Assembly (NCBI GenBank): GCA_016748015.1
Contig: JAAOMT010000710.1
Location: forward strand, 62,001-126,000
Direction: 5' to 3'
Source of the DNA: Geosiphon pyriformis uo1
Lineage: Eukaryota; Fungi; Glomeromycota
Length of the DNA: 64,000 nucleotides
Part shown: piece by piece, positions 4,730 to 62,932 of the stretch
Layout: each line of letters opens with the position of its first letter
Position numbering within the stretch: the first letter of the stretch is position 1
Program-made: the position numbers and the translations under genes
Notes under the pieces: model-generated
What the model saw: only the letters and a program-made list of their open reading frames with translations
What the model was told of the DNA's origin: nothing
Databases searched by the model: none

Positions 4730-7700
4730 TTGATTTTGTTTGGAAAATTGCTATATGCAATGTCAAAGGAATGAACAATCCAGCTAAACAAGATAATATT
4801 GTGCATTGGCATAAAGACATAAACAATCTGGTTTCAATTTTTACAGAAACAAAGCTAAAAGAAAAGTCTCACCCATGGATTGCTAACAAATTTAGTGATG
4901 TCTAAGTGTTTATCTCAGGTTTGAACTCTGGATACTTGGGTTCGGGTGTTGCTATAATTATGGACAATTTTTTGACAAGGCATGTGAGTAAGATTTCTGA
5001 GGTAGCTGGTCATCTTATTTTTATCAAGTTGTTCTTTAAAAATAGACTTTCTGTTTTGATTCTGGGGCTCTATGCTGGCACTTTTTCTGCAGTTCATTTC
5101 TTCCAAGCTGATGTTATTAACTCTTTTATTGCCAAAACTACTAATAAGTCCACTTTTGTTGTCCTTGGCAGTAACTTCAATGAAAATGGTTTTTACAAAT
5201 GTGTGAGTTTTAAAAAGTGTTTTGGTTTGGGTCTGGTTAATTTTTTAGCTGGTAGCTCAGTAGCCAAAATGCCTACATAAGAAAATTCTAGAGGTGTTGT
5301 TAAAACAATTGACTATGTTTTTGTTTTTTCAAATTTAATCAATGTAATTCTGTGCTGTAATGTTCTGGGTGTTAGCAAGCACTTTAATACTGATTATTGT
5401 GCTGTTTCTGTGTCCGTAAGTTTGAGTGGACTTTTAGATATGCAGTTGAACTCTTTTTGCAAACAGACAAACAGAAATCACTGGAAATTTAACATTAAAA
5501 ATGCTAATGAGATTACATGGAGTGAGTTTAAGGATACTATGATGGCCAATGCTGCTATGTTCTCTAATGAATTTGCCACATCTAAGAAGTGTTCGGATCT
5601 GGATGCTATGTGAGACATTGTTCGCAAAGTAGTGTCTCTTTTGGCTAATGGGGTTTTCAAAAAAAAATGGTTTAAAGGCTATGATAAGGTGTTTACTAAT
5701 GAGTTGTCCAGATTTTACAAACTAGAAGTTCTGGTTTCAAGATTGGCTAAGGCTTTTTATAACATGGTGTCTAACAGGTTTTTTTCCTTTTTGAAACATT
5801 GGAACTCTTTGGATCCTGATAAGGCATCTGTCATTCAGGTTCTTGTTGGCTCTAGTGCAGACTCTGATTGTATATGTTCTGCTTTCTTTGGTGTGAGAAA
5901 ATCTTATCATACATCTAAACTGGCTGAGTTTTTATGTGCTGAGGAGTCAGGCATCAGATCTGCTATTGAAAAATGAATGAAAAGTTTTACAGTCAACAAA
6001 AACCACACAATCCATAATGTTTTAGAATGTCTTTTTTGGAAAGTGGTGCTAGACTACCTGGTTTCTAATGGTAGTTTAATTGTGGACCCAGTTGATGTTA
6101 AAAAATAATGTTGACAAGATTATGAAAGATTGGACAAGAAAGAGGGTAGTGCCATATAACATTTTTGATTTGTGGCAATGTTAATACCTGCCATTAGATT
6201 ATGCCAACAATAATGCTTTTTCTGAAGTAATAGACATTATTAGCTATGAAAATTTGGTATGTGTGGTCAAAGATTTGTCAGATGGCAAAGCTGCTGGTTT
6301 GTCTGGTATTACAAATAAACTTTGGAAATATTGTGATGGTTTCATGCTTGGTATACTGTTAGATCTCTTAAATATCTGTTTGGTCCGTGAATCTGTACCC
6401 CAATGCTAGAAAGAGGCTTGAGTGTCTATAATTCCTAAGCCTTATGAGTGAAAAAATGTTCTGATCAATACTAGACTAATTGCTTTAATTAAGACTGCTC
6501 GTAAAGTTCTCTCTAAGCTACTTTCTGATAGAATTTTGTCAGCATGTAATGTGTTTAATGTTCTTCATGACAATTTTTCTATGCTTAAGGGCACTATTAC
6601 CCAGTCTCCTATTTTTGCCATTGGTTCAGTTGTTGAAAATGCTTTAAAAAAAAATCGTGAGCTTTAACTTGTCTTACAGGATATGTGGAAGGCCTATAAC
6701 TCTGTGAGTTGGCCCCATTTGCAAAATAGTTTGGTTTAGATTAAGATGTGTGATCATTTCATCAGATTCTTTGGGAGTATTCACAATAATTGTGTCAATT
6801 ATGTTATGACTAATTTTGGCCTAACTGATAAATACTGAATACATAATAGTCTTGACCAGGATGAGGTGTTTTTTCTCTTACTGTGAAGAATCTTCTACAA
6901 TCTTCTTTTATGTGAAGTTAAGAGACAAGAGAGTTTGTGTGGATACTGTATTGACTCCAAGTTTGTTGCTAAAACTGGCAGATTGGAGACCCATGGTGGT
7001 TTGACCTTATTTTTGGCAGCTGGTGCTTTTGTTGATGACACAATTTGGGTAAGAAGTAGCCAGGCTGTTACTCAGTACATTCTGGACATTGCAAGTGAAT
7101 TTTTCAGTATAAACAATATCTCCATTAATAATAAAAAGACTGTGGCTATTCTTATTAACAGAAAGATAGAGAAAGTGTTATTGTCAATAAGTGGTCTGCC
7201 AATTTTGATTGCTCATAAAGAAGAGTCTTATAGGTATCTTGGGATCTATTTGTCATTTGAGAATTTGTCCAAACCCAGTTTGGCAAAAGCTCATTCAGAT
7301 GTTAGGTTCTTTGTTAATTTGATTTTGAGGAAGACCATTTTAGACAAACAGTTTCTTTATCTGGTTTCAGCTGTGTTGCAACCTATTGTCAGTTATAAAT
7401 CTCAGTTTAGTTTTCTTTCTAAAAGTGTGTATATTAAGTGAGACACATTAATTAGGAAAGGTTTAAGGCTTAAGGCTGGACTACCAAAGAATTTTCCTAA
7501 TGAGGCTTTTCATCATCCATCCTTGTATGGTTTGAAGTCTTTTAAACAGTTGCAGGCTGAGTGCAAAATAGTTTTTGTGCTGAGTTTCTCAAATGCTGGT
7601 GGGATTCTGGATCACTTGTTTATTTATAAGTCTCTTGATTTACAGGTTCTGAGTTGGTTACCTGTTCACTCTTTATGTCACCCAGTTAGGTTACATATTA

Positions 7701-9395
7701 ATCTGGTCAACAATTATCTGGCTGGTGTTGTAAGAATTTTTTTGAATTGTGATGTGTCTCTTGGAAACTTTTTTCATATAGCATTCCGTTTTTTTGGTGG
7801 GACACCAATGTTTTTAGTTCTGGAGGATTATTTGTTTTATGAAGTTTTACACTCACTCAAGAAATTTGGAGTCACTTTTGTTAAACAGCTGTATATCAAG
7901 AAGGGTTTGGAAAAGCTTCTGCCATTAAAAAAAGCTCAACCCAAGGGGTCCAATTCCTTATTAGTTCAATTTGGCATGTGATTTTCTGGCCTGCTCCTCT
8001 CCTTATAATAATCTCCCTGTTGCTGAACTCCAGTCACCAGATATTAGTAGTTTGAAGGATGTTCTTCAGCTGAAGCAATGTTTTTTCACTTCTAATTTAA
8101 ATGTTATTGAGGTTTACACAGATGGATTTTTGAAAAATTTTGGTATGCGGGAGATGAGATGTAGTGCAGCTGCTTACTTCTTGGATGTGGATCTGGGTAT
8201 TGGCATTAAGGTTGGTGGGTTGGTTTCTTCTACTTTGGTGGAATTGCAGATGATTGCTTTAGCTTTGGAATGTGTTCCTTCTCACAGTTGTATTGTGGTT
8301 TATTCAGACAGTCAGACTGCCTTAGATGCTTGTGTTGTTGAATCAGTTTTGGTTTCTTCGGACTTCCATAATTATTGTTGGATGAAATGGTGTGGTGTTG
8401 TGAATCTGATTAAGAATAAAAGGCTTAGTGTTTCTTGGCATAAGGTTAAAGGACATTCAAGTGTCATGGGTAACAACCATGCTGACAAGTTGGCTAATTC
8501 AGCTGCAGGTTCAAGTTTGGTGCTTTCTGTTTTGATTAAGGAAATATTCATAGAGGCTGGTGGAGTGGTGGTGTCTGGTAATGTTTAGTATTTTGCTTGG
8601 AGTATTTTTAAGACTGTAAATTGTGCTGGTTGGGAGGTTGGATCTAGTTCTGCTGTTATTGACAGTGGTTTAATTGGTGATGTGGATTGGGTTCGTTTTG
8701 CTTTGGTCTGGCATCCTTACTTACATATAATGGCTGGGTTTACCAACAAGTCTACCACTAGTCTGTGCTTATATTTTTTGAAAGCTCTGTACTACTGCCT
8801 GCCAGTTGTTGTGTAAAAGCACTTGTATGATAAAAATTATTCAAGTGTTTTTTGTCTTCATTGTGGAGAGGTGAAGAGCTCTGATCACTCTTTTGTGTGT
8901 GTATTTGACTCTAATGTTCATAAGGATCTGCTTGCTTCTTATTTAGCTAAGTGGTATGCTATGTCTGGTTTGGGCCTTCCTTTGTCTCGGATCTTACAGA
9001 TGCTTTCTTTGTGCATTTCTGATAATGTGCTATACACTGCTTTGAGCAAAGACTTTTTATTCAGGGATTGGTATCTGGAGGCTGTAGCTGTTTTGGATGA
9101 TGCTAAGTCTGCAGGAAAAGTTATTATTGACTTTGTTTGAGATTTTGGTGCTGCTCACTATGTTGAGATATAGATGATTAAGGCCAAATATAGAGTCTTT
9201 ATGGAAAAAAGTGGTTTAATTCATTGTAATAATTCTGTTTTTTTTGTGACCCATGGTCTTTTGTCTTTGCTTTTGGCTAGAGTAGTTAGGTTGCTTGGAA
9301 TTGCTGAGACAATAAGTATCTGTTTTGGTTTTTATAAACCCTGCTATTTTTTTTCTGATTTTGATAGTGTGGTGTCCATTATGATAGATTCATAG
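4726..9395 (+). pseudogene. LINE ORF2: AP endonuclease, reverse transcriptase, RNase H, C-terminal CCHC
   Basis: APE motifs CNVKG, ETKL, GSNFNE, IDYV; RT motifs QDMWKAYNSV, AFVDD; RNase H motifs VYTDG, YSDSQ, WHKVKGHS, GNNHADKLA; CLHCGEVKSSDHSFVC. ATG overlaps the ORF1 stop (ATGA, 4726-4729). Confidence 0.92.
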
Positions 9396-10079: not shown

Positions 10080-11162
10080 TGTTACCCAAGTAAAAAAACC
10101 GATCCAAAGTTATGAAAAAACATAACCAAAACGTGACATAATACAGAATAATACGCAATAACGTTGAATAATGCATTATAACATAAGATAATGTGTTATA
10201 ATACAGGATAACACAGAATAGCACACAATAACATAGGATAACGTGTTATAATGCAGGATAACACAAAATAACATGTAATAATGTCAGATAACGTATTATA
10301 ACATAGAATAACTAGCAATAACATAGAAAAACAAAGCAATAACAGAAACAACAAAGCAATAGTTAGCAATAACAAGACAATTGAAAGCAATTCTGTAAAA
10401 CCAAAAGAATATATAAAAGCAAGTAGTTGTAGAAGTGAGAAAAAACAGACAGATAAATACGAACCTTTAGACAAGAATTAAATATCCATATCCCTTCATC
10501 CTTTATTATCTTCCCTATTTCATCTCCTGAAATAAACCAATTATTAAAAGAAATCAGAATCACAAATTCATGTTCTCAAACTTTGTAGAATTTACATAAA
10601 TTAACCCTTGTCTCATATCTCTATTCTAGGACAGATGCTCTTAGCATAACCGCCTTGAACCTATTAATGATTTGGACTAATTGCTCTTGATTACAGTGAT
10701 TGACGATACTAATTTATCTTTTTTCTCTTTCTTTTTCTTTTCTTTTTTCTTTTTCTTTCTTTTTCTGTCTATTTTGGTGGAGTGGCAACATAGTAAAATC
10801 AACTGTCTGAGAATAGATTTCGTGATAGCCTGGTAAAAGAGGGAAGCTCTCCCTAAGTTTTGGATATTAACATTATCTTGTTAGCTTACTAGAAGGGTGA
10901 AAAGACAACGCCAGACCCTAATGACTGTGCTCATTAGCTCAGAGAAGAAAACTCACATTTACGAAAAACGTTGCAATCAACAAAAGACAAACTCTGTGCC
11001 TTATAACCAAAAAACTCAATGGGTAAATTCACATCCAAGAATAGACCTTCAGAGACTGATAATCAAGACTAAAGCCAACAGAATTACACGGAAAATGCAT
11101 CATCAATAATTGAAAGCACCAAACGTTACCATTTCCCATACCCATTAAGTTTACCCATAACA
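10080..11162 (+). repeat. Element A 5' LTR (1083 bp)
   Basis: Direct repeat of 29118-30199; U3 tandem array about 10130-10330; TATA-like TATATAAAAG about 10410. Confidence 0.95.
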
Positions 11163-16085: not shown

Positions 16086-17066
16086 TGTTACCAGACAAAA
16101 TTAGAGATATTGTTTAGCATGAAATTACCTTTATAAATTTTATCATTAATTAGCATATATTATTGTTTTAAATTATCACTTATTACATTAGCAAAATGTC
16201 CGAAATTATCATTTAATTAATAACTCAATTTGCACATAACACAAATATAACCTAAGTGCAATAATCAAATCATACAATACCCCGAAATATGTAACATTCA
16301 AAAGTTTGCCAAAATTTGTAGAAATTTGCTGAAATAATTGATAGTTCACCAAAATATCTAATAGTTCGCAGAAATAACTTGTAGTTTGCCGAAATGTATC
16401 TTTAGTTCAGTAAAATTGTAGAAAAAAAGCAAAGTTCAAGTTCATAGAATAGTGTTACAACAAGTTGTATAAAAGAAGAGCTTCTCTCTTCGAAAAAATA
16501 TATCTTACTTTAGATTTATTACTTAGAACTATTTCTACACACACAAAAAAAAATAAATATCAAATAATTTGAAAAACCAAATTCTTTAATTATTGCACTT
16601 GGAAGATTCTCAAAACCCAACTAATGTTTTGAAATTGATTAGCTACCAATTTCAGTAAACTGTTAGTGACTCCAGGCCTGGATAGAAAACGTTTCCCTTA
16701 ACAGAATTCTATTTCTTTTACATTTCTTTTATTTTTTTTTTCTTTTCTTATTACAATCATTAGGGTAGCCTACAGACAAGATTCCTGTAGAAAAATTGAC
16801 TTTCACAGCAAAGTAACTACACATTTTTAGTGAGCTTCCAGATGAGCAATTCCTGGAAAAAAGTTGACATTTACTACAATGTAACTATATAAAGTAACTG
16901 GCAAAGAATTGGCCATTCCACTTATAAGCCCAGTAGTTCAAATTATAGGAGATAATTTGAAAATAAATTCAGTTACTGGAGGTTCAACTACTTCCTGGAA
17001 ATGTGAATTCACAGCAAATCAACATCAACAATATTCAAGAAAAGAGACCAAAAACCTCCGGTAACA
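16086..17066 (+). repeat. Element B 5' LTR (981 bp)
   Basis: TGTTACC...GGTAACA; direct repeat of 24998-25977. Confidence 0.95.
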
Positions 17067-24309: not shown

Positions 24310-25029
24310 ATGACTATCCCTCAAAATATTCAACAAATATCTCAAAAATTAATGCTAACTTTAAAGACAATACCTGAATTATCTATCACTATTACAGGAA
24401 AACATATTAATTATACCCAAACAGAAATAGTTGCCAATTTAGCCCCAAATTCACAAAATTATCACCCCTACAAAAAAAACACAAAAAGTTACTCTGGAAT
24501 TCAACTACCAGAACTTTTGAAGCTTGCTTTAAAAGAAAATTTAATGTTCACTCCTATTAGTATTCTACCAAATGCTACTATTCAACAAAAACTTCAACTG
24601 TGTCTTAATGAAGAAAACCATGATTATACTCCAATATATAGATATTTCTACATTGGAAAAACACTTCATGAACAAAAACGGGAGCTTACAGCAGCAAACC
24701 TCACAAAAGAAGCTATTCAAAAACAACTTCACAACGAATTCAAAACAACAGCTGGACCTACAAACAGTTATTATAAATTAAGAGCTGTTCTTAGACTTTA
24801 TAACCTATTTCACACCTGTGAAAACGTCTTACAAAACCCAATTTTACAGTCTTTGAAGATTCAATACATTGGAAAGCTCACAGAACTGAAATTTCAACAA
24901 TTTTCAGACCAAATTTCTTCAATAATTTTGGATTATTATCTGGAAATTATGGACAGTACTTGGACTTTGATGGAGCTCAGTCTTGAAGAGAAGGTTATGT
25001 TACCAGACAAAATTAGAGATATTGTTTAG
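24310..25029 (+). CDS. Element B ORF3, unknown protein (probable ancestral stop at 24986)
   Basis: 239-aa open frame homologous to ORF3 of A, C, D and E; the DFDGAQS* end shared with other copies lies in a shifted frame. Confidence 0.8.
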   Translation: MTIPQNIQQISQKLMLTLKTIPELSITITGKHINYTQTEIVANLAPNSQNYHPYKKNTKSYSGIQLPELLKLALKENLMFTPISILPNATIQQKLQLCLNEENHDYTPIYRYFYIGKTLHEQKRELTAANLTKEAIQKQLHNEFKTTAGPTNSYYKLRAVLRLYNLFHTCENVLQNPILQSLKIQYIGKLTELKFQQFSDQISSIILDYYLEIMDSTWTLMELSLEEKVMLPDKIRDIV

Positions 25030-25977
25030 CATGAAATTACCCTTATAAATCTTATCATTAATTAGCATATATTATCGTTTCAAATTATCACTTATTACAT
25101 TAGCAAAATATCTGAAATTATTATTTAATTAATAACCCAATTTGTACATAACACAAATGTAACCTAAGTGCAATGATCAATCATGCAATACCCTGAAATA
25201 TGTAACATTCAAAAGTTTGCTGAAATTTGTAGAAATTTGTAGAAATAATTAATAGTTCACCAAAATATCTAATAGTTTGCAGAAATAACTTGTAGTTCAC
25301 CGAAATGTATCTTTAGTTCAGCGAAATTGTAGAAAAAAAGCAAAGTTCAAATTCATAGAATAGTGTTACAACAAGTTGTATAAAAGAAGAGCTTCTTTCT
25401 TTGAGAAAATGTATCTTACTTTAGATTTATCACTTAGAATCATTCCTACACACACAAAAAAAAATAAATATCAAATAATTCAAAAAACCAAATTCTTTAA
25501 TTATTGCACTTGGAAGATCCTCAAAACCCAACTAACATTTTGAAATTGATTAGCTACCAATTTCAGTAAACTGTTAGTGACTCCAGACCTGGATAAAAAA
25601 CGTTTCCCTTAACAAAATTCTATTTCTTTTACATTTCTTTTATTTTTCTTTTCTTTTCTTATTACAATCATTAGAATAGTCTACAGATGAGATTCCTGTA
25701 GAAGAGTTGACTTTCACAGCAAAGTAACTACACATTTTTAGTGAGCTTCTAGACAAGCAATTCCTGGGAAAGAGTTGATGTTTACTACAACGTAACTATA
25801 TAAAGTAACTGGCAAGAAATTGGCCATTCCACTTATAAGCCCAGCAGTTCAAATTATAGGAGATAATTTGAAGATAAATTCAGTTACTGAAGGTTCAACT
25901 ACTTCCTGGAAACGTGAATTTACAGCAAATCAACATCAACAATATTCAAGAAAAAAGACCAAAAACCTCCAGTAACA
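24998..25977 (+). repeat. Element B 3' LTR (980 bp)
   Basis: Direct repeat of 16086-17066, preceded by PPT. Confidence 0.95.
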
Positions 25978-29117: not shown

Positions 29118-30199
29118 TGTTACCTGAGTAGAAAAACCAATCCAAAGTTATGAAAAAACGTGACCAAAATGTGACATAACACAGAATAATGTGCAATAAT
29201 GTTGGATAACGCATTATAACATAGAATAATGTGTTATAATGCAGGATAACACAGAATAGCGTACAATAACGTAGGATAACATGTTATAACACAGAATAAC
29301 ACAGAATAACATGTAATAACATCAGATAACGTGTTATAATATAGGATAACTAGTAATAACGTAAAAAAACGAAGCAATAACAGAAACAACAAAGCAATAG
29401 CTAGTGATAGCAAGACAATTGAAAGCAATTCTATAAAACCAAAAGAATGTATAAAAGCAAGTAATTGTAGAAGTGAGAAAAGACAGACAGATAGATACGA
29501 ACCTCTAGACAAGAATTAAATATCCATACTCCTTTATCCTTTATTATCTTCCCTATTTTATTTCCTGAAATAAACCAATTATTAAAAGAAATCAAAATCA
29601 TGAATTCATGTTTTCAAACTTTGTGGAATTTATGTGAATTAACTCTTGTCTCGTACCTTTATTCTAGGACAGATGCTTTTAGCATAACTGCCTCAAACCT
29701 ATTAATGATTTGAACTAATTGCTTTTGATCACAGCAATTGATAATACTAATTTATCTTTTCTCTTTTTCTTTTTTTTTTCTTTTTTTTTTTCTTTCTTTT
29801 TCTGTCTATTTTGGTGGAGTGGCAACATAGTAAAATTGACTGTCTGGAAATAGACTTTGTGATAGCCTGGTAAAAGAGAGAAGCTTCCCCTAAGTTTTGG
29901 ATATTAACATTATCTTGTTAGCTTACCAGAAGGGCGAAAAGACAATGCCAGACCCTAACGACTGCACTCATTAGCTCAGAGAAGAAAGCTCACATTTATG
30001 AAAAACGTTGCAATTGATGAAAGACAAACTTTGTGCCTTATAACCAAAAAACTCAACGGGTAAATTCACATTCAGAAATAGATCTTCAGAGACTGATAAT
30101 CAAGACTAAAGCCAACAGAATTACGTGGAAAACACATCATTAATAATTGAGAGCACCAAACATTATCATTTCCCATACCCACCAAGTTTACCCATAACA
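29118..30199 (+). repeat. Element A 3' LTR (1082 bp)
   Basis: Direct repeat of 10080-11162; PPT AAAAAGAGAGGAA upstream. Confidence 0.95.
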
Positions 30200-31204
30200 A
30201 CATTTAAATTAGCATTATTTAAGTTTGGTAAAGTTGTTTCTATTAAAATACTGCTAATTAATTTTTATTAAAAAGCTTTGGTTAAATTTAAAAGTTTTAA
30301 AGTTGCTGATTTAATTGTTTTTAAATAATTGATTTCACTAAGAAAAGATTTAATATATATTGGGAAAATTAATACTGATAAACAAATATGGAATTTAAAA
30401 AACTGCTATCATACTTTTTTATATGTTTTGCTAATAAACACTACTGTTTACAATATTTTAAGCTTAATTTTGGCTTATAGTAAGAAAACTTGTTTTATGT
30501 TTTATAATTCTGTCTTTTATATACAAATATATTATATTATTATGTATTTTGAGTTTGTTATAATAAGAATATTACTATTTATTTAACTTCTATTTTTAAA
30601 AACATTGATTTGGTTTGAACTGATTTATAATTTTTTAAATATACTATGTATAAGAACTTGAATTATATTTTAAATATTTGTAAAAATAGTTTTAAATTAC
30701 TTAGTTAAAACTTAAAAAAATTTTTGAATTTAATAAAAAGCATTTTACTTTTATTTATAGCAAAAAGCAGATTTTTATGTCTTGTTTAATTTTTTTTAGT
30801 AATATAATCTGAATTTGTAATAAATAGCAGTTTAAAAACTTTTCTGTTTATATTGTTTTTTAATATTTTATTGGTAGATATGTTAGTCAATAATCTTAAA
30901 GATAGTTTTATTATTTTGGTTTTAATTTTTTAATTTGGATACAATAAAATATTTTTTGAAGCTTTTTTTTAATCATGTTTTCAAGATTGCTTATAAATTA
31001 ATTGATTTTTTATTATTATTATTATTAAATTAAATAATAAATTTATCTATTTCTGTTATTGATTTAATAATAAATATAGCTATTAACAAATTATTACTTA
31101 TTTTTTTGTTTTATATATTGGTTTTGATATCTTTTAGAATTTGTTTTTTAGTAGATTCAAAGTTTTAATTGGCAAAATTAGTGGTCTAAAGACAAATATG
31201 ATAA
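30200..31204 (+). mobile_element. Old LINE ORF1 remnant, segment 3
   Basis: LFKFGKVVSIK...ALVKF...CYHTFLYVL continues the ORF1 frame interrupted at 10079. Confidence 0.65.
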
Positions 31205-33025
31205 TATTATTAGCCAAAATTCAAAATATTATTTAGCATAAAATTATTTTTATAATTTTTACTATTAATTAGCATATTATTATTTTAATTTATTACTTAT
31301 TATTTTATTAAATTATCCAAATTATTATTTAATTAATAACTTAATTTATACAGAACATAAATAAAACCAAATTGTAATAATTAAATTATGTAATATACTA
31401 AACTATTTAATATTCAAAATTTGTTAAAATATTTGGTAATTTAATAAAATATTCAATAGTTTACAAAAATAATTTATAGTTTATAAAAATAATTTATAGT
31501 TCAACAAAATATATTTTTAATTGTTAAAACATTAGAAAAAAAAGTGATAAATTATAAAATAATACTATAACAAATTGTTTAAAAGAAAAGCTTTTTTTTT
31601 GAAAAAATATATCTTAGTTAGAATTCATTTTAATTAAAACCAATATTTTTTTAAATATTTTTTTTACAAATTAACTCAAATAAAACTTACTTAAAAATAT
31701 AAATTTTTTAATTATTTTATTTCGAAATTAATTATTCTATACTAATATTTTAAAATTAATTAGTTACTAAATCCAGTAACTATTAGTAATTTCTAAGCTT
31801 AAATCTAAAACAAATTTCTTAACACATTTTTTATTTCTTTTTTTTAGTTTATTTTTTTTATTTTTTTTTATTTTTTTATTATTGAATAGTTTACAGTCAA
31901 AATTTTTTGTTAAAAAGTTAACTTTATAGTATAATAACTACACACATTTTTAAAAAGCTTAAAGATAAAATTTTTCTGTAAAAAAATCAATTTTTATCAC
32001 AAAATAACTATACAAATAATTAACATAAAATTAGCTATTTTATTATAAGTCTAATAACATACATAATTCAAAATGTAAAAAAATACTTTGAAAAAAGAAT
32101 TAGCTTATCAAAAGTTTATTAACTTTTATTAATAGCAGAATTAACAACAAAACAGTATTAACAACATTAAAAAAAAATAAAAAAATCTTTAGTAATATTT
32201 GGTGCTTTTTTAAAAATAACACAGCAACAATTAAATCAAAGTGGCAATTATATTAGACATAACAATTCTAAAGTACTATTAATTAATTTACATTCACTAT
32301 AAACAATAATTTAAAATTTAAGATAGAATTACAGTTTTTAAAAAACTTTTTTTCAATACATTAAAAACCAAATTAACAATTATTTTTTTAAAAACTACAT
32401 ATTACAGAAGTTAAGTAAAATCTTTTTGAAAATTTCATTTACTACTTAAATAAAAACCCCAAAAAAATTAGTGCTGATATTTGTGCTACTTATTTTAAAG
32501 AACTTAACTACAATATTATTAAGTTTTGTAAAGAAAAGTATCTTGTTAATTTACAATTTGTTTTTAAACTTAAGTTTAAATCCAAAACAAACAACAAAGA
32601 CAAAAAAAACATTTAATCAGTTTATATAACTTTTAACACAGTAAAAGACAACTTTTTAATATTTGCAAGCATCTAAACAAAGAACTAGTTTTAAAATACT
32701 ATTTTTAATTACATCTTTTTTAGCTTTATTTGCTTAAATACAAATATCTAATTTATCTTTTAACCAATTTTTAGAACCAGAAAACTTTATCAAAAGTCCA
32801 ATTTAACAGCCAGAACTAATTTATATTAGCACTAATCTTCTTGATTTTTTAGCAGAAAATTAAAATAAATATTCAAAAATGCTAACCAATAAAAAAACAC
32901 TTCTGAATTTATTAAAAAAACAAACAAAAAGAAAACAAAAAAATAGCAACTTTTTATATTGTAAAAATCTTTGATTTTTTCAGAAAAAACATTAAAATTA
33001 GCTTTTAAAAGTAGTTTGACTTAAA
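31205..33025 (+). mobile_element. Hyper-mutated truncated B-family element (LTR 31205-32197, PBS, start of gag)
   Basis: Colinear with 16086-17920; retains TTTGGTGC PBS and AAAGTGGCAA; most C and G replaced by T and A. Confidence 0.85.
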
Positions 33026-35343: not shown

Positions 35344-35885
35344 TATTACTCATAAAATATAGGAAGTATATATTAGCATAAATTAGCCAATCAGAAGTAA
35401 CCATAGTAAATATGGAATTCTAGGATTCCAAGAATTTCAGAATTCTTGTACAAGGAATTGCAAGATTCTAAGAATTTCAGGATTCCTGGTGTGAAAAATT
35501 GAGGAATTAAGGAATCTCAATTATGTATATATAGTGGTAGAGTTAGAAGTAGAAAAAACAGAACTGCTCAGTTTAGATTTAATCTAAACAATCTTCCAAA
35601 ATTCACAAATATTAATAAATAATTATCTAATATCTCAATCTACTCTTTACTATTAACACTTTATGTTAATAATCTCAAATACTTAACCATACTGGAATAA
35701 TAGCTCTTGATCACAGCTATTGACAAAATACTAATCAGTATTGTCTTGGCTTATTTTTATTTGTTTTCTTTTATTTTCTTTTGTTATTTCTTTTGTTTTA
35801 TTAACTTGATTATAAAGATTCATATATGGAGATACTGATGTCAAGATATAGCACTGGTAAAAAACCCAGAAATAAGGGTAAACAC
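35344..35885 (+). repeat. Element D 5' LTR, first part
   Basis: Matches 62067-62690; CCAAT box about 35387, TATATATAG about 35526; interrupted by C. Confidence 0.9.
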
Positions 35886-36643
35886 TGTTACAGTTTAAGA
35901 ATTTAGAAAAAAGAATCATAAAAATAATACAAACTATTCAATTATAATATAGCACAGTAATAATCTTAGAAAGGTAATGATTAACATAGTAGCAAACACC
36001 ATCTCGCAATAGTGGCAAGCACCAGTTCACAATAGCAGCCAACACCAACTGGTGATAGCAGCAAACACCAGGTTGAAATATCAAAAAGAAAGTATTTTCT
36101 TGTAGAACTACAAACATGTATATATACAGTAGTTTTAATATTGGGAAATAATCAATCAAGTAATAAAAANNNNNNNNNNNNNNNNNNNNTATCACAACCC
36201 AAAGTATTAAGAAACTTACTTGTATTATTTATTGAATGAAACTATCATTCATCAACTGAATCCCTTGGAAGAATAATCCTTGATCAAGATTATTCACGTT
36301 GTTACTAATTGATAAAAGCTTTATTGTGAGAATTAGAAAAGCGCTAAAGACTATTAACATTCTGTGTTTCTAGATTAGAGAAACACATCAGGCAATTGCA
36401 AGAATAGCCTCAGAGAAGACCCCAAACAGTGGGTAGATTTCAGTTCAGCCTCTGAGAAGGAGTACATAAACACACACAACAATCAAGAATTAAAGAATAA
36501 CTTACATTACAACAGTAAAAAAAAAGCCTTCAGTGTAACAGTGACATTATCACACAAATAGAACTGAGGAACTCACAAAAGACTGATTGCAATTAAAGCG
36601 GGATATCAGCAATTAAATATAACAAGAAAACCATCCCGTAACA
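35886..36643 (+). repeat. Element C 5' LTR (contains assembly gap)
   Basis: Direct repeat of 42744-43609; N-run 36170-36189. Confidence 0.93.
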
Positions 36644-36725
36644 TTTGGTGAACCCTACGAGGAAAGAAAATCAAAAAGGAAATAATAATTAGCAATAATT
36701 CATTGCTAAAAAGGAAAAGACAAAA

Positions 36726-39700
36726 GTGGCGACAAAAACCCCTAATCTTACTGTTCTTGAATTCTGCCGTGCTATTTACACACAAAATCAAAGTGATCTT
36801 GGATTACCAGAAGGGTGTTGTCCAGCAGAATCTGCCCTCACTTATTATATCAACGCCAGAATAAATTATCATATAGGAAAGGAAGAAGAACCACACGACG
36901 CAAAACTTGGATTGTATAGAGAATTATCACAATACACTACAAAAGAAGTAGCAGTAATAGCCGCAACTATTGTCAAAATCCATCGAGAAATTGAGCAATA
37001 CGCCAACGAAAATTTTCCAATATCCACAGGAAACACTAGAGAACGCGCCAACAAAACCAAAGAAAATTTAGAAACTAATCAGGAAAGTAACCAGCAAAAA
37101 CTAGAAACACCAGCTCAAATGCCAAAGAAAACTGTCACTTAATCAATAAAGAAACAACGTATTTATTCACCAGAAGATAAATCATACCATTTTTTACCAG
37201 AAAATAAGATACAAATTCCATTAGGAGCTGCATCATCATCAACATCAACTCCACAAATGCCAAGAACTCCTAGTTATATTGATAAAATTAAACAACGTAA
37301 CTGGGGAGACATACCAATTACAGGAGGATATTCATCACTATTCCAAAACCCTCTTTTTCAGCCAAAATTTAGAACGGGGTTTGAAAACCGTGAAGAGGAG
37401 TCTGAATCAGAATCCGAAAAAGAGACCAGCGAAAAAACAATCACAAGACNNNNNNNNNNNNNNNNNNNNAAACTCGTGATCAAGAGGAAGAACCGGATAT
37501 AAGGGAAGCCACCTTTAGGAACGCTCAAGGAAATATTATCCCACCTCCTCTTAGACCAATAAACCCACCAGCAGAAAACGGCAACAAAATGACCACACCA
37601 TACATTGCAAGACTAACAGATTTCTCAGGAGAGGAAGAAGAAACGGACGTGCACACATGGCTCAGAGAAGCACAAAAAGCCATTCAGGCAAATAACTGGA
37701 ATGACCAAAGAGCAATTCAAACATTACTTTTCTTCCTCAAAGGCACAGCCGACTCGTGGTATCAAAGCCTGGAAACAAAACCCACAAGCTTCACCGAATT
37801 TAAAAATGCACTCCTGGAGTATTTTAGCGACCCAAACGCCATAATCCAACTACAGAACGAATTCAATACTATCAAGCAAAATACTGGTGAAACTGTCACC
37901 CAATATCTTGCTCAATTCAATCGAATTCGCCGTCAGATTGAAGCGATTGAACAAGGATACTACACTGATCCTCAGGTTTTAAATCAGTTTATTAGAGGAT
38001 TAAAAAGCAGCATTTTAGGAAGAGTACGCCCTGCCCACCCTAATTCCTTACCAGAAGCCATTACGCTCACCAGAGCCCTTGAATTGGCTGAGAAAGAAGC
38101 TAACCATAGTCAAATGGTTAACATGGTAATGGAGGAAAATAAGACAGAAACATTAGAGAAAAGAGTAACGCGATTAGGGGAGGAACTCTCTAAGAAAATA
38201 GAAAGTTACCTCATCCCGGATCCGAGAAAAAATACATACCAACCACCCCAAAGACGCAGCCAGGAAGTCAGCGACAGTCGAAATAATCGCTCGTCGCGCC
38301 AGGAATTCAGAACAGAAACACGCGCCTGCCATTTTTGCAAACACGTAGGACATTTGATTAGTCAATGTCAAACGCAAATGATACAGGAAGCACGCGAAAA
38401 TAATTATTATGCGCCACCCCAAATGCTCAGAAACCAGTACATGCCAATACCATGCCAATATCCCACCACGTATCAAAATCAAGGAGCTTACCAGCAACAG
38501 CCCATAATAGCCAACCCGAATTGGCGTCCCGAGGCCCGAAATCAGCCCATGTGGAACCAGAATGCATTGGTCCAGAGGAATCCAAACTGTGCCGGAACCA
38601 ATCAGCAAACCAATCCAAACTACCAAAATTATCAACAAACTTACTTTAATATACCGGAAAACCTGATCATCGGAAACAATGATGGTAGAAACATAAACAA
38701 AACCAAAAATTCCTCCAAATTGAGCCAGACAATACCACCAGCAGTTGCCACCGAAGATAGCAGCCTCGCAGCTATTTTTCCTTTTGAATTAGAGGAAAAC
38801 GAGGCTATGTTCAGTGGAGCAGCATTGGACAAAAAACGCCCAATCACTGCTATGTATACGGAAGCCACTGTAAACAATACTCCAATCAAACTTATCTTAG
38901 ACAGCGGATCCGCTGGAAGCATCGTAATGCTTCAACTAGTAAACCAACTAGGTTTCAAAGTTGATCGTGCCATGATGTCCCAAATCATAACAGCCGATGG
39001 AAGTACAAAGCTGCCTTATGGCAAAATCGACTCATTCCCTTTTGAAATTAACGGCATAGTAATACCTACAAAAGTATTAGTAATGGACGCTACACAATAT
39101 CAAGCATTAGTAGGGAATGACTGGCTAACAAAAGCCAACGCCACCCTAGACTGGACCACCCAAGAGCTTCTGATCAATTATAATGGCCACCAGGCCAAAA
39201 TTCCAGCCACTTGTGGCCACTTCCAAAAACCCAGCGCCAACCAAAGACCTACCTTCAAATTTGAGGAAAATCCAGCACTACCAGCCATCGAAACCTATTA
39301 GCTCTCTTGGGCTGATGACCAAAGAACAGGACTACCAGCCGTACCAATATGGACCAGCGAAGAAAGATCCAAATGGAACCAGGTAAGTTCACGAAGAAAC
39401 TACCAGCGACACAGACCAAAGCTAGAATGCTCGGTTTGCAAGAAGAAACTCTTGTCTATGACTGCGTGCAGCGCACCGGACGAAGACCCAAGAAACCCCA
39501 CCCACTACTATTGTAACTGTTGTAACAAAGAAAAATACGGTTACCCAGAAAGACACGGAAAATGGGACGAGAAACCGTGTCTCGCTTGTGGAGAACCATT
39601 ACCAAGAGGGTGCAACTGGAATGACTTACCAAGCAGAGGAGGAACGTGTGACGCAACTTGTCAATACATGATCCTCATCTGTGACTGGGTAAGAGGAGGA

Positions 39701-42324
39701 ATGCTGTTCGAAGCAGCGTTCAACAGAGCGTTAAAAAGACTACAGCACTACTCACACAACGAGGACGAGTTGTACAATACCGCACAAGCCAAAGTAAGAG
39801 GAGGAACCGCCAAAGAAATACGACGTTGGAAAGAGTCAGCCGAAGTAGCCGACGAAGTCGTCAGCTACAACATGTTTGACCCAGTGGACAAATTCCAGGA
39901 CTACTACCAACAACTATGCCCACTCGACAAGAGCAAGAACAATACCTTGCCCAAATCAACACTTACCTCTGCGAAAACTGTCTCATCCTGTGCCAAAGTC
40001 AGTGCTGTGAAGAGTGTTAAGACGAAAGGGACTTAGAAAGAAAAATGGAAATTGAGAATCAGCAGTCTCAAAATCAATCAATAAATCAACAAGACTTACC
40101 TGATGGTCCCGAGTCAGAAAAATTTGTAGCCTATACCGACCTAGAACAGGTGACCAACATCCAATACTTCGACAATAGGCACTTAGGAATAATACCCGAA
40201 AGAGCCTATCCAACCGACGCCGAATTCGATTTACGTTATCCGAAAGACCAATCCACAACATTACCACCCAGGAGCATCACCAAAATCGACCTAAAAATAG
40301 CAGTTGAAATTCCGCCAGGAATAATGGTTCAAATGGCATCGCGATCAAGCCTCGCGAAAAAAGGAATAAGCATTCAAGAAGGAGTAATTGACTCCGAATA
40401 CACTGGAAATTTGATGGTTTTGCTACAGAACAATTCAGAAAAGCCTTATACCATTGAATCTAAGGAAAAGATTGCACAAGCAATTTTCCTACCATTGGTA
40501 AAAATTGGGAAATTCGTGCCAGTAGAAAATTGTGAGGAATTGTCACAAACAACGAGAGGAACTTTTGGTTTCAGATCGACAGGAAAAGAAATTGAAGCGA
40601 ATTTCGCTGATACAATAGAGGAAAAAGACGAAGTAATTAAAAATGAGCAGTCTATTACACTCCTACCATATGGAAAATCAGAAATAAGAATAAAAAGAAC
40701 AATTAAAAAAAAAAACCTAATATTTGAGCCCTACCCAGAAACTTGCCAACAGTTTTTTATAGGACTTACTAACCTTTTTATTTCAGCTGATAAAGCTCAA
40801 TGGATAAAAATTCCTATCGCAAACACCACAGAAGAACCCGTTTACATTCCGGAAGATACTATCATTGGATACCTCAGAACGGAACTAGAAAACGCGTCAA
40901 CACCACAAGAAATTCTAAATTTCCCAGAAATTGCCCTCTACTGTGAACTCACTTCAATAAATTGGCAACAACCGGTAGAATGCTATCAATTTACACCAGA
41001 AGAATTGGCCAAATTAAACATTGGAACAATGGATCCCGACCAACAGCGACAATTAAAAGCATTAATTTTAAAATACTCTGATATATTTTCAAGAAATGGC
41101 GAATTTGGAAGAACCAACTTGGTTTAACACCAAATCCCCACTGGAGATGCCAGACCTGAAAAACAATGCACTTACCGTGTCCCACTAATAGAGCATAATT
41201 TTATCAGAGAAGAAGTCCAAAGCATGTTGGAAAAAGGAATAATACAACCATCAATGAGCTCATGGTCCTCACCAGTTGTTTTAGTAAAGAAAAAGAACGG
41301 AAAAATTAGATTTTGTGTTGACTATCGCAAATTAAACAGCAAAACAACCAAAGACTCATACCCAATACCATTAATTGACGAAATCTTTGACGTTTTTGGA
41401 GGAGCAAAATGGTTTTCTACACTAGACTTGACCAGTGAGTACTGGCAAGTGGAAATGGACCCAAAGGACAGGCATAAAACAGCATTCACAACACAAAATG
41501 GCAATTATGAGTTCAATGTAATGCCATTTGGATTAACAAACGCTCCCGCGACATTCCAAAGACTAATGGACGTAATTTACTCCGGAATCCTGTGGCAATC
41601 CGTTGTAGTCTACTTGGATGATACAAATGTTTTCTCATCAAAATTCACAGATCATTTCCAACATTTACAACAAGTTTTTGAGAGATTGAGACATGCTGGA
41701 CTTAAACTAAATCTAGAAAAATGTTTCTTTGGGAAAAATGAGCTAGCATTTTTAGGACACGTAGTTGGAAAAGATGGAATAAAACCANNNNNNNNNNNNN
41801 NNNNNNNAAACATCGCCAAACCCCTTAATTACCTACTATCTAAAAATGTGAAGTTTGAATGGACTGAAGCACAACAAAAAGCTTTTGAGTACCTTAGACA
41901 AAAGCTCATTGAATCACCAATAATGATCTATCCGAATTTCAACAAGAAATTCATTTTGGCCACAGATGCCTCTGGAACTGGACTTGGAGCCATTCTGTCA
42001 CAAAAAGATGATAATGGAAGAGAACGTGTAATCGCTTATGCCAGCAGAAGTCTCAGTACGGCAGAACAAAACTACACAGCACATGAACTTGAATGCTTAG
42101 CAGTAGTCTGGAGTTGTGTTCACTTTGACACATATTTACGGTACCAACCCTTTGAGATTACGACAGATTATAGAGGTCTGGTCTGGTTAAATAACAAGAA
42201 AGCGCTAAAAGGAAAATACACCAGATGGTCACAAATATTAGTACCATACAATTATATTATCAAATACAAAGAAGGTACCAAAAATGCTAATGCCGACTGT
42301 TTGTCAAGAATGAGACACACATAA
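36726..42324 (+). pseudogene. Element C gag-pol (gag, CCHC, protease, Cys-rich domain, dUTPase, RT, RNase H), nearly intact
   Basis: Long ORFs 37589-39301 (gag and protease in one frame), 40045-41127 (dUTPase), 41224-42324 (YLDD, ATDAS, NADCLSR). Confidence 0.95.
40185..40580 (+). pseudogene. dUTPase domain in element C pol
   Basis: DAEFDL, ASRSSLA, GVIDSEYTG, KIAQ, RGTFGFRST. Confidence 0.93.
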
Positions 42325-42353
42325 AAATCACCAACCCACCCGCCACAACAACA

Positions 42354-42730
42354 ATGAACAACCACCTTTACAAAAACCTCAGCCAATACTTGGAAACACT
42401 ACAAATAGACGAAAAAATGCCAGTAAAAGAGCTAATTAAGCTCCAAAAATTAGCAAAACAACTATCCAACTATTAGAACCTTTCATTGGAAAAACCAACA
42501 CTACATTCTATTCAAAAACAGTTTACAGAATTTTCAAAGCATTTGAAAACTGTCACAAATTATTGTTGGACCCAACCATGAACATAATAACAACCAACAG
42601 TATTGGACGACTTACCAACTTGCAATTTCAAGAATTACAACAACAAATTAATAACACAGTATTGAACCACTATAGTAACTTAGAATTTAATGAAGAAATT
42701 AACTTCGATTTCGACGGAGCTCAATCTTGA
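42354..42730 (+). pseudogene. Element C: integrase N-terminal stub joined to ORF3 C-terminus
   Basis: MNNHLYKNLSQYLETL...KLAKQ, then in another frame FIGKTN...YRIFKAF...DFDGAQS*. Confidence 0.85.
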
Positions 42731-42743
42731 AAGGAGGGAATAA

Positions 42744-43609
42744 TGTTATAGTTTAAGAATTTAGAAAAAAGAATCATAAAAATAATACAAACTATTCAAT
42801 TATAATATAGCACAGTAATAATCTTAGAAAGGTAATGATTAACATAGTAGCAAACACCATCTTGCAATAGTGGCAAGCACCAGTTCACAATAGCAGCCAA
42901 CACCAACTGGTGATAGCAGCAAACACCAGGTTGAAATATCAAAAAGAAAGTATTTTCTTGTAGAACTACAAACATGTATATATACAGTAGTTTTAATATT
43001 GGGAAATAATCAATCAAGTAATAAAAATCATAACTTATCAAGCAATAGATCCAATTTTATCCAACAAACTCCACTTTAAATCATACTTTCAAATTAAATA
43101 TCCCAAGAAACCTTTAAAATCAAAAAGAAATGAAAAAGAATATTTAGAACTGAACTATCACAACCCAAAGTATTAAGAAACTTACTTGTATTATTTATTG
43201 AATGAAACTATCATTCATCAACTGAATCCCTTGGAAGAATAATCCTTGATCAAGATTATTCACATTGTTACTAATTGATAAAAGCTTTATTGTGAGAATT
43301 AGAAAAGCACTAAAGACTATTAACATTCTGTGTTTCTAAATTAGAGAAACACATCAGGCAATTGCAAGGATTGCCTCAGAGAAGACCCCAGACAGTGGGT
43401 AGATTTCAGTTCAGCCTCTGAGAAGGAGTACATAAACACACACAACAATCAAGAATTAAAGAATAACTTACATCACAACAGTAAAAAGAAAGTCTTTAGT
43501 GTAACAGTGACATTATCACACAAATAGAACTGAGGAACTCACGAAAGACTGATTGCAATTAAAGCGGGATATCAGCAATTAAATATAACAAGAAAACCAT
43601 CCCGTAACA
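42744..43609 (+). repeat. Element C 3' LTR (866 bp)
   Basis: TGTTA...GTAACA direct repeat. Confidence 0.95.
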
Positions 43610-43613
43610 ACAC

Positions 43614-43858
43614 TTGGAATTGAAAATATCTTACTAAAAGGATTACTGGTCATCACACTGAGAAAAAAATTGACGAAACTGCAGTTTTGGAAAGCTATGG
43701 ATAAAACTATCAATTAAATATCTGTCTATTATACAAAGAACTCCACAACAACACCTTCAGATCAACCAAACCTTCAGATATCAACACCAGAATATCAATC
43801 AAACACCAAGTTATGGGTTTGTTATTTGATTTGAGACCCCAAGTAAACACTTGTAATA
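43614..43858 (+). repeat. Element D 5' LTR, second part
   Basis: Matches 62690-62932; followed by PBS. Confidence 0.9.
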
Positions 43859-50923: not shown

Positions 50924-51619
50924 TATTACAGATGATTATTTGGGGTTTCAAAGCAAATAACAAACCCATAACTTGGTGCTCAATTAATATAAATGCTTGG
51001 GAATATCTAAAGATGTTGTTTTATCTGAAGATTTTGTTGTGAAGTCTTTTGTATAATGAACAGAGATTCAATAGTGATGTAGTTAGTTGTTGAGTTGTTT
51101 TTTCAATTTCTGTCTTTAGCTTGGTAACTGGTTTATTCTGGCAGTTGTGTCCTTCTAGTAAGCTATTTGTTAATATATATAATTCTACCCTTATTTCTGA
51201 GTCTTTTACCAGACTGTCTGTGATGTCAATTACTCAGTGCTTTAATTTTTAATTAATTAGTATACAACAATAAAATCAAAGAAAAAAAAAAAAAGAAAAA
51301 AAAAGAAAAATAAAGAAATGAGCCAAGGCAATGTGCAAGTTAGTATCTATCAATAGCTGTGATCAAGAACTATTGTTCCAGTGGAGTTAAGTAGCAATTA
51401 CTATCAACATGAAATGTTGATAGTAAAGAGTGGATTGAGATGACAAATAATTATTTATTGATATTGGTGATGTAAAAGGTTTCTAATTAATGGATCTTTT
51501 TCTACTTCTAACACTACTAGTATATATACATAATTTGGGTTCTATGAGATCACTCACATTCTCAAGCAATGTGCTATAATTTCTCAAGCAATGCTCACAT
51601 TGCTGAGCAATGTGTCATA
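50924..51619 (-). repeat. Element E 3' LTR (U3 end truncated)
   Basis: Matches 59901-60596; about 146 bp shorter than the 5' LTR. Confidence 0.9.
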
Positions 51620-59900: not shown

Positions 59901-60742
59901 TGTTATAGGTGATTATTTGGGGTCTCAAAGCAAATAACAAATTCATAACTTGGTGCTTAATTGATATAAATGCTTGGGGATATCTGAAGGTGTTGTTTTA
60001 TTTGAAGGTTTTGTTGTGGAGTTTTTTGTATAATGAACAGAGATTCAACAGTAATGTAGTTGGTTGTTGAGTTGTTTTCTCAATTTTTGTCTTCAGCTTG
60101 GTGGCTGGTTTATTCTGACAGTTATGCTCTTTTGGTAAGCTATCTGTTAATATATATAATTCTACTCTTATTTCTGGGTCTTTTACCAGGTTGTCTATGA
60201 TGTCAATTACTTAGTGCTTTAATCCTTAATCAATTAGTATACAACAATAAAATCAAAGAAAAGAAAAAAAAGAAAATAAAAGAAAAATAAAGAAATGAGC
60301 CAAGGCAATGTACAAATTAATATTCGTCAATAGCCATAATCAAGAGCTATTGTTCCAGTGGAGTTAAGTAGCAATTACTATCAACATAAAATATTGATAG
60401 TGGAGAGTGGATTGAAATAACAAATAATTATTTATTGATATTAGTGATGTGAAAGATTTCTAACTAATGGATCTCTTTCTACTTCTAGCACTACTACTAT
60501 ATATACATAATTTGGGTTCTATGAAATTGCTCACATTCTCAAGTGATGTGCTATAATTTCTCAAGCAATGCTCACATTGCTGAGCAATGTGTCATATCTT
60601 CTAAACATTGCTCCACATTGCTGAGCAATGTGCCATGATTTCTAACATTGCTCCACATTGTTGAACAATGTGCTCATGTGCTAACTACTATTTGCTTATT
60701 GGTCTACTATTTTTTATATTTGTTTTCTTTTTATGAGTAACA
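59901..60742 (-). repeat. Element E 5' LTR (842 bp)
   Basis: TGTTACTCAT...TAACA on the minus strand; palindromic U3 repeats. Confidence 0.93.
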
Positions 60743-62066: not shown

Positions 62067-62932
62067 TATTACTCATAGAATATAGGAAGTATATATTAAC
62101 ATAAATTAGCCAATCAGAAGTAACTGTAGTAAATGTAGAATTCTAGGATTCCTCTTAGAAAAATTGCAGAATTCCAAAAATTTCAGGATTCTCATACAAA
62201 GAATTGCAGAATTCCAGAATTCCAGAATTCCTCTCAAAGAAATTACAGGATTCCAGGAATTGCAGGATTCCAAAAATTCCAGGATTCCTGGTATAAAAAA
62301 TTGAGGAATTGAGGAATCTTGATTATGTATATATAGCAGTAGAGTTAAAAGTAGAAAAGACAGAATTGCTTAATTTAGATTTAATTTAAACAACCTTCCA
62401 AAATTCACAAATATTAATAAATAATTATCTAATATCTCAATCCACTCTTTACTATCAACACTTCATGTTGATAGTCTCAAATACTTAACCATGCTGGAAC
62501 AATAGCTCTTGATCACAGCTATTGATGGGATACTATCTAGTATTGCCTTAGCTTATTTTTATTTGTTTTATTTTATTTTCTTTTGTTATTTCTTTTGTTT
62601 TATTAACTTGATTATAAAGATTTACATGCAGAAGTACTAATGTCAGGATATAGCATTGGTAAAAGACTCAGAAATAAGGATAGACACTCAAGATTGAGAA
62701 TATCTTATCAGGAGGATTACTGGCCATTATGCTGAAAAAAAAATTGATAAAACTGTGGTTTTGGAAAGCTATGGATAAAACTATTAGTTAAATCTCTGTT
62801 CATTATACAAAGAACTCTACAACAACACCTTCAGATCAACCAAACCTTCAGATATTAACACCAGAATATTAATTAAGCACCAAGTTATGAGTTTGTTATT
62901 TGATTTGAGACTCCAAGTAAACACCTGTAACA
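62067..62932 (+). repeat. Element D 3' LTR (866 bp)
   Basis: Repeat of the split 5' LTR; ends CCTGTAACA. Confidence 0.93.

Follow-up and report, generated by a model that had tools for sequence, protein, structure and literature searches.

The apical loop of the HIV-1 DIS comprises nine nucleotides, in which a palindrome is flanked by two bases on one side and one on the other. The DIS is reported to depend on its flanking purines and to follow the PBS; its hairpin, SL1, has a GC-rich hexamer and a stem that is interrupted by internal loops and able to form an extended duplex (PMC5874298, PMC7599994). The ALV L3 and MuLV SL-A and SL-B hairpins are likewise short, with a palindromic or pseudopalindromic loop leading to an extended duplex (PMC5874298). 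The accounts cited here map retrotransposon dimer signals in no elements other than yeast Ty1 and Ty3, each studied singly at the bench (PMC4974528, PMC11381356, PMC5454406). Ty3 dimers formed in vitro are described as requiring the GC-rich palindrome CUGCAG in GAG, five other palindromes being insufficient; one of these, UAGCUA, appears to be base-paired (PMC11381356). Ty1 uses AU-rich kissing motifs near its 5' end (PMC5454406, PMC4974528), and divergence between Ty1 families has been proposed to block mixed dimers (PMC5454406). A supposed dimer signal in the BARE1 LTR was not confirmed, the cited text of PMC3735527 giving none for BARE.

Here we describe a hairpin in the LTRs of Ty3/Gypsy elements from Geosiphon pyriformis, a fungus in which LTR elements make up a reported 41.2% of the genome (PMC11952901). 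A sequence-only reading of the locus had likened the hairpin to the HIV-1 DIS. The 6-nt palindrome in a 9-nt apical loop and the stem able to form an extended duplex are indeed shared; the purine flanks, the GC-rich hexamer, the internal loops of the stem and the position after the PBS are not. The loop bases flanking the hexamer are mostly pyrimidines (CU/A in family C, CU or UU/C in A, D and E, AU/C in B), and the hexamer has two G-C pairs, compared with four to six in a GC-rich one. Because of its mostly pyrimidine flanks, its weak AU-rich hexamer and its position upstream of the PBS, the hairpin is not a member of the HIV-1 DIS type. The ALV and MuLV hairpins are retroviral and experimentally established, and bear no sequence relation to ours; Rfam gives two chance matches in the window, none inside the LTRs.

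The Ty3 dimer site (DS/PAL6) also belongs to a Ty3/Gypsy element and also carries a 6-nt palindrome at the tip of a short hairpin, within the 5' portion of its RNA, where a kissing-loop start has been proposed (PMC11381356). It differs in being GC-rich, in lying in GAG and in having been found by SHAPE and deletion, whereas ours is AU-rich, lies in the LTR and was recognised by conservation only. The Ty1 contacts (SL1a with PAL1/PAL2, and SL1a-SL3a) resemble ours in joining RNAs at the 5' end through AU-rich complementary motifs, but Ty1 is a Copia element, its kiss joins two different hairpins and its palindromes lie in a stem (PMC5454406). Thus, the palindromic dimer sites of Ty1 and Ty3 make this a kind of mechanism already known in retrotransposons. 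We found no description of the present hairpin in the literature at the level of titles and abstracts, and the cited parts of two transposon papers on these fungi describe none (PMC11952901, bioRxiv 2021.03.30.436303); supplements or repeat libraries may annotate these LTRs.

Five nested Ty3/Gypsy elements

Self-comparison and Pfam searches resolved the window, the 64-kb stretch of DNA analysed here, into a nest of five LTR elements, families A to E (Table 1). Across them, Pfam identified Ty3 capsid, protease, dUTPase, RT, RNase H and integrase domains. The order is gag-PR-RT-RH-IN with a Ty3-type capsid, and the elements have the LTR pairs with TG...CA-like ends, the PBS, the polypurine tract and the target duplication of Ty3/Gypsy elements. 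The 4-bp duplication is exact in C and one or two transitions off in A, B and D; none was seen for E. The dUTPase lies between PR and RT, as it does in the fungal Gypsy element PosPlaTy3-5; Tmt1 also carries one in pol. The likeness to these two elements concerns the dUTPase only, the cited text covering dUTPase, PBS and target duplications and not LTR hairpins (PMC2864245).

The two LTRs of an element are 89.7-97.6% identical, and 293 of the 299 differences within LTR pairs are transitions. The RTs of the five families, broken frames being read with X, form one clade (100/99) with the topology (B,(C,(A,(D,E)))); they are 48-57% identical between families, and 77% between D and E. Named RT relatives are mostly from Glomeromycotina, and all 86 matches to the start of the family C gag are G. 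pyriformis gene models, the best of them 96% identical. Family C is very abundant in run X1 (4382 contigs). In element C, the youngest, most of the integrase is missing at 42324-42743, where both ends of the integrase ORF region are kept.

The gag-homologous frame opens at an A-rich GTG-GC(A/G), 43-83 nt past the LTR, and contains no ATG in its first 190 nt. This GTG was found by script in five of six elements and by eye in E. At the corresponding position, 60 of 68 aligned family C gene models have Val and three have Met. GUG is a candidate Gag start, the alternative being a spliced upstream exon, as predicted in many of the gene models. In the five families, pol stops three or four codons past the RNase H end motif and integrase opens at its own ATG 10-55 nt further on. 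Among 120 relatives listed, in a search limited by length and biased accordingly, 69 have the RNase H end motif and 49 of these end within 14 residues. An integrase with an ORF of its own would, to our knowledge, be an uncommon arrangement among Gypsy elements.

Table 1. Coordinates in the window of the LTRs, hairpins and associated features
Feature	Position	Strand	Remarks
Family A 5' LTR	10080..11162	+	3' LTR 29118-30199; pair 89.7% identical
Family B 5' LTR	16086..17066	+	3' LTR 24998-25977; pair 93.4% identical; inserted in RT of A
Family C 5' LTR	35886..36643	+	inserted in 5' LTR of D, 4-bp target duplication
Family C 3' LTR	42744..43609	+	97.6% identity with 5' copy (454 nt compared); TATA-like box at 42977, AATAAA at 43020-43025
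Family D 3' LTR	62067..62932	+	5' LTR 35344-43858, split by C
Family E 5' LTR	59901..60596	-	3' LTR 50924-51619; inserted, inverted, in integrase region of D
Family A hairpin, 5' LTR	10678..10702	+	decayed, palindrome broken
Family A hairpin, 3' LTR	29716..29740	+	7 Watson-Crick bp (from 29717) plus outer pair U-G
Family B hairpin, 5' LTR	16630..16654	+	8 bp, loop AT-TAGCTA-C
Family B hairpin, 3' LTR	25541..25565	+	8-bp stem
Family C hairpin, 5' LTR	36271..36295	+	8-bp stem, loop CT-TGATCA-A; covariance model match
Family C hairpin, 3' LTR	43237..43261	+	identical to 5' copy; stem pair probability 0.78-0.99
Family D hairpin, 5' LTR	35698..35722	+	7 Watson-Crick bp (from 35699) plus outer pair U-G
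Family D hairpin, 3' LTR	62500..62524	+	8 bp, loop CT-TGATCA-C
Family E hairpin, 5' LTR	60328..60352	-	decayed, palindrome broken
Family E hairpin, 3' LTR	51351..51375	-	decayed, one U-G pair
Hairpin remnant in old B-like LTR	31751..31775	+	decayed, folding lost
Antisense exon containing C hairpin	43184..43270	-	87 nt; X2/X3 contigs; hairpin unchanged in both
PBS-like sequence of element C	36646..36662	+	starts TGG; read from sequence
GTG opening gag-homologous frame of C	36726..36728	+	conserved; candidate non-AUG start
Gag-frame GTG, A	11225
Gag-frame GTG, B	17112
Gag-frame GTG, D	43921
Gag-frame GTG, E	~59837	-
Gag-frame GTG, decayed B-like element	32241
Gag-PR-dUTPase-RT-RNase H region of element C	36726..42324	+	broken; Pfam, tblastn
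Pol stop, A	26910
Pol stop, B	~22721
Pol stop, C	42324
Pol stop, D	50132
Pol stop, E	53709	-

A hairpin with a palindromic loop

Families A, C, D and E share an 8-bp stem with a nearly invariant 9-nt loop that contains the hexamer TGATCA. Family B has the same geometry with the hexamer TAGCTA. All ten hairpins listed in the sequence-only reading have the sequences given there, and the 7-8-bp stem closing a loop of two bases, a 6-nt palindrome and one base (2+6+1) is Watson-Crick-perfect over 7-8 bp in seven of them. The decayed copies are those in the 5' LTR of A and in both LTRs of E, the palindrome being broken (TGATTA) in the two 5' copies. A hairpin had been claimed for every LTR family; all of A to E have it, but a sixth, heavily decayed B-like LTR (31204-32198) has lost it. 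The hexamer lies 163-276 nt past the TATA-like box, close to the 160-270 nt proposed before.

A scan of both strands of the 64 kb for a stem of at least 7 bp closing a 2+6+1 palindromic loop returned nine hairpins, seven of which are those in these LTRs. When five LTRs were shuffled with dinucleotides preserved, the exact geometry arose in 1-6 of 1000 shuffles per LTR; for a looser class, in which the stem has at least 7 bp and the loop need only include a 6-nt palindrome, the rate was 2.3-7.3% in 300 shuffles. The recurrence of the hairpin exceeds chance. The copies represent about three independent stems (A/D/E, C and B) rather than ten, D and E being identical apart from decay.

RT searches yielded 15 viral and 77 genome loci as an outgroup. 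These are distant Gypsy elements (RT at most 48% identical), shorter and GC-richer, and so an imperfect control. Of 22 direct repeats, 10,488 nt in all, that we treated as putative LTRs, none has the 2+6+1 hairpin and one has a hairpin of the looser class, its palindromic loop closed by 7 bp or more; in the 92 loci, a covariance model of the A/C/D/E hairpin found no match below E=0.85. Searches for additional LTRs of this lineage brought none: a PBS pattern retrieved 12 loci from metagenome contigs, none of them matching the element proteins, and two DNA patterns had no match in viral contigs. A search with the dUTPase region in the five genomes behind RT loci gave three weak matches, in two genomes.

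Covariation of the stem

The eight A/C/D/E copies, seven of them distinct, align without gaps; all 56 cells of the alignment pair, and five of the eight base pairs have changed on both sides. None of 500 shuffles matched the observed pairing, and controls with slid partners paired in 12-51%. Given that the shuffles ignore the relatedness of the copies, we added a simulation of random change. With four changes per arm, a C-like stem came out fully Watson-Crick in 1.2% of cases at 98% transitions, and in 0.03-0.2% with more transversions. Three of the four changes between the C and D stems are double transitions, which decay can mimic. The double transversions G-C/C-G (in C) and U-A/A-U (in A) are not open to this explanation.

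All seven non-Watson-Crick cells are G-U on the sense strand; allowing for CpG decay, only two or three of these pairs would have been inherited, a weak pointer to sense RNA. Divergence of the hairpin tracks the RT tree. The earlier claim that stem sequences differ while pairing is kept is thus borne out by compensatory changes in both the alignment and the simulation. Because every cell pairs and five of eight pairs have changed on both sides, two of them by double transversion, selection on structure is well supported, and comparison of the sequences makes it very probable that this is a conserved, selected RNA hairpin.

The loop of family B

Family B, the deepest branch, shares with A, C, D and E the stem length, the loop length and loop bases 2, 3, 8 and 9, and its hairpin lies at a similar distance from the TATA-like box and AATAAA. 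The A/C/D/E covariance model gives its eight training copies 40-48 bits; B is absent among its 40 matches down to E=10, and MAFFT places B 7 nt out of register with the other families. Any covariation of the loop would have to come from B. As the model misses B, the swap of TGATCA for TAGCTA is not a demonstrated covariation and may reflect either deep homology or convergence. It would be the only loop change that keeps self-complementarity. Single transitions passing through G-U pairs would connect the two hexamers, but one such change counts for little. A duplex between the two hexamers is unfavourable (+1.6 kcal/mol).

Position in the RNA and transcripts

In the eight LTR copies measured, the hexamer lies 88-227 nt past the first AATAAA, the likely polyA signal, and 363-475 nt before the end of the LTR; the family C 5' LTR contains a run of N, and spacings were therefore taken from its 3' copy. 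In Rhizophagus irregularis, AAUAAA is the main polyA signal, reported within 50 nt of the tail at 56.7% of sites (bioRxiv 2022.10.19.511543). To judge from the TATA-like box and AATAAA, R is probably short and the hairpin probably lies in U5, which would confine it to the 5' end of the RNA. Since it is downstream of the TATA-like box, we infer that it is transcribed.

When the predicted leaders of the five intact copies were folded, the stem formed with a probability of 0.75-1.0 and the hexamer was unpaired with a probability of 0.87-0.97; in the three decayed copies the stem probability falls to 0.08-0.40. Among the palindromes of the leader, the hexamer ranks first for exposure in four of the five intact copies and fourth in the 3' LTR copy of D, behind three A/T-only hexamers. 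On the antisense strand of whole leaders it is also mostly unpaired (0.83-0.97), a small difference from the sense strand; when short fragments are folded, the C and B loops shrink to 5 nt on the antisense strand and stay at 9 nt on the sense strand. The 900 nt past the PBS showed no conserved rival palindrome. An intramolecular partner for the loop was considered and rejected, as further copies of the hexamer have no shared position.

Read data are confined to the 3' LTR of family C. In contigs of X2 and X3, from two studies, 43110-43183 and 43271-43471 are skipped; both stretches have CT..AC ends and so read as minus-strand GT..AG introns, their donors being GTAAGT. X3 additionally skips 42966-43086. 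We read both runs as RNA, the run type being presumed, and contigs cannot show start or strand. What these contigs show is antisense spliced forms and not sense RNA, and the sole transcript evidence is antisense. The joined antisense exons of C contain no long open frame. Antisense spliced forms of C, with GT..AG introns, span 42693-43609 and 36655-36751 (minus strand); one more antisense skip, deduced from a loose end, takes out the GTG together with part of the PBS.

Function of the hairpin

We rank a dimer signal ahead of a protein-binding loop, translation control, RNA processing and a DNA-level repeat, and regard the hairpin, probably in U5, as a candidate dimerisation site of the genomic RNA; from sequence and modelling, this is the best explanation, to which we give somewhat less than an even chance. 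In its favour are the compensated stem, the exposed hexamer of intact copies, the lack of a conserved rival palindrome in the 900 nt past the PBS and the precedents of Ty1 and Ty3. Transcription would start past the TATA-like box and the 3' end would form past the first AATAAA, leaving the hairpin solely at the 5' end. Two RNAs would kiss through the hexamer, or through 8 nt in family C, where self-complementarity extends to eight loop bases, and Gag would chaperone the kiss into an extended duplex of ~25 nt for packaging. That so short a stretch separates the LTR end from the gag frame would account for the place of the signal in a long U5 and not after the PBS. The duplex energies of the two hexamers are -5.0 and -5.1 kcal/mol, compared with -7.9 and -10.9 kcal/mol for the two HIV types. 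A hexamer at the weak end counts against dimerisation; AU-rich contacts nonetheless have precedent in retrotransposons. We did not count the extended-duplex energies of the palindrome-bearing copies (-9.9 to -15.2 kcal/mol), as any such hairpin gives such values.

So do the flanks without the purines of HIV-1, the failure of UAGCUA and four other palindromes to support Ty3 dimers, the small number of independent stems, the exposure of the hexamer on the antisense strand too, and transcripts seen in antisense only. It also counts against dimerisation that, without B, the loop is invariant and fits protein binding equally well. An invariant loop on a covarying stem is the usual pattern of a loop read by a protein, and this is what A, C, D and E present, with flanking TGGAA and TACTAA motifs kept too. 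The hairpin could then be a protein-binding element of the 5' leader, serving Gag packaging, nuclear export or stability, with the palindromy of the loop incidental. We consider this unlikely: B keeps a palindrome in the same geometry with the four central bases changed, and a 9-nt loop with a centred palindrome is rare in shuffles. Less likely again is a part in translation control, by internal entry or shunting, the hairpin then forming one domain of a larger structure in a 600-750-nt leader ending at a GUG start. The gag frame has no opening ATG, GTG in an A-rich context is kept in five families, the leaders carry 2-8 upstream ATGs and further conserved helices, and a long U tract follows the hexamer by 31-67 nt in A, B, D and E. 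Such a role leaves the palindrome unexplained, however, and the hairpin lies 360-475 nt from the end of the LTR, with no U tract in C.

The two remaining readings seem to us very unlikely, and to a similar degree. The hairpin could suppress or place polyadenylation, or adjoin a splice signal: the conserved TACTAA looks like a branch point when read in sense and like an acceptor when read in antisense, the C copy is used as an antisense acceptor in the contigs of both studies, and in A, D and E the motif and the U tract after it are similar to a 3' splice site. But no conserved sense donor occurs between the TATA box and the U tract, for which reason a sense intron removing the hairpin was rejected; the distance to AATAAA also speaks against processing, as does B, which has no TACTAA at the corresponding place, and the palindrome again goes unexplained. 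Alternatively, the inverted repeat could act as DNA (protein site or cruciform), or be a neutral quasi-palindrome kept by template switching in reverse transcription. Watson-Crick stems can form equally on either strand, hairpins abound in these LTRs (2-4 with a stem of at least 7 bp, where ~1 is expected), and compensation can be imitated by C-to-T and G-to-A decay of the two arms. Against this, the arms vary between families beyond what a DNA-binding protein could accept, and some of the changes are double transversions. The 9-nt spacer and the position do not vary, the wobble pairs without exception fit the sense strand, and dead copies decay without repair.

A wider proposal can be built on the dimerisation reading, namely that a U5 kissing-loop signal has been kept across Ty3/Gypsy families down to ~50% RT identity, in a lineage with a GUG Gag start and a separate integrase ORF whose long U5 took over the leader work usually done past the PBS. 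The change from UGAUCA to UAGCUA would shut B out of mixed dimers; the other four families, not being separable by a hexamer common to all of them, would be able to co-package. Drawn from sequence comparison, this remains rather doubtful. A site conserved by covariation across families would mark the palindromic hairpin as an old, selected Gypsy feature that can sit inside an LTR. The hairpin offers a 25-nt target and a natural swap variant for a gel test of family separation, and since LTR elements cover so much of the genome, it holds copies enough for a strong covariation test.

Other features of the LTRs and the window

The U5 regions contain further paired elements. In A, D and E, CTGGTAA and a complementary TTACCAG ~55 nt further on enclose a small hairpin (29867-29929, 60189-60133 on the minus strand, and 62656-62712); the element is perfect in the 3' LTR of A and decayed elsewhere, and a comparable hairpin, ACCC-N8-GGGT, occurs in C at 43385. 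In C (43198-43216), D (62451-62475) and E (51400-51428, minus strand), the palindromic hairpin is preceded, at a distance of 38-50 nt, by another whose loop is short. The B 5' LTR has a 12-nt GC-rich palindrome at 16671-16682, a second candidate dimer site, which one change breaks in the 3' LTR copy. Long T tracts (30-35 T in 40 nt) occur in the U5 of A, B, D and E (10719-10765, 16707-16750, 62556-62600, and 51270-51320 on the minus strand) and are absent from C.

Outside the five elements, an old B-like element at 31204-32993 is down to ~16% GC, its decay far beyond that of its neighbours. At least 260 stretches with Ty3/Gypsy RT are found in a prokaryote genome collection, most likely eukaryotic contigs binned into MAGs. 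A broken element at 2843-9140, with RT and RNase H matches, no LTR pair and a base skew opposite to that of the Gypsy elements, is likely a LINE.
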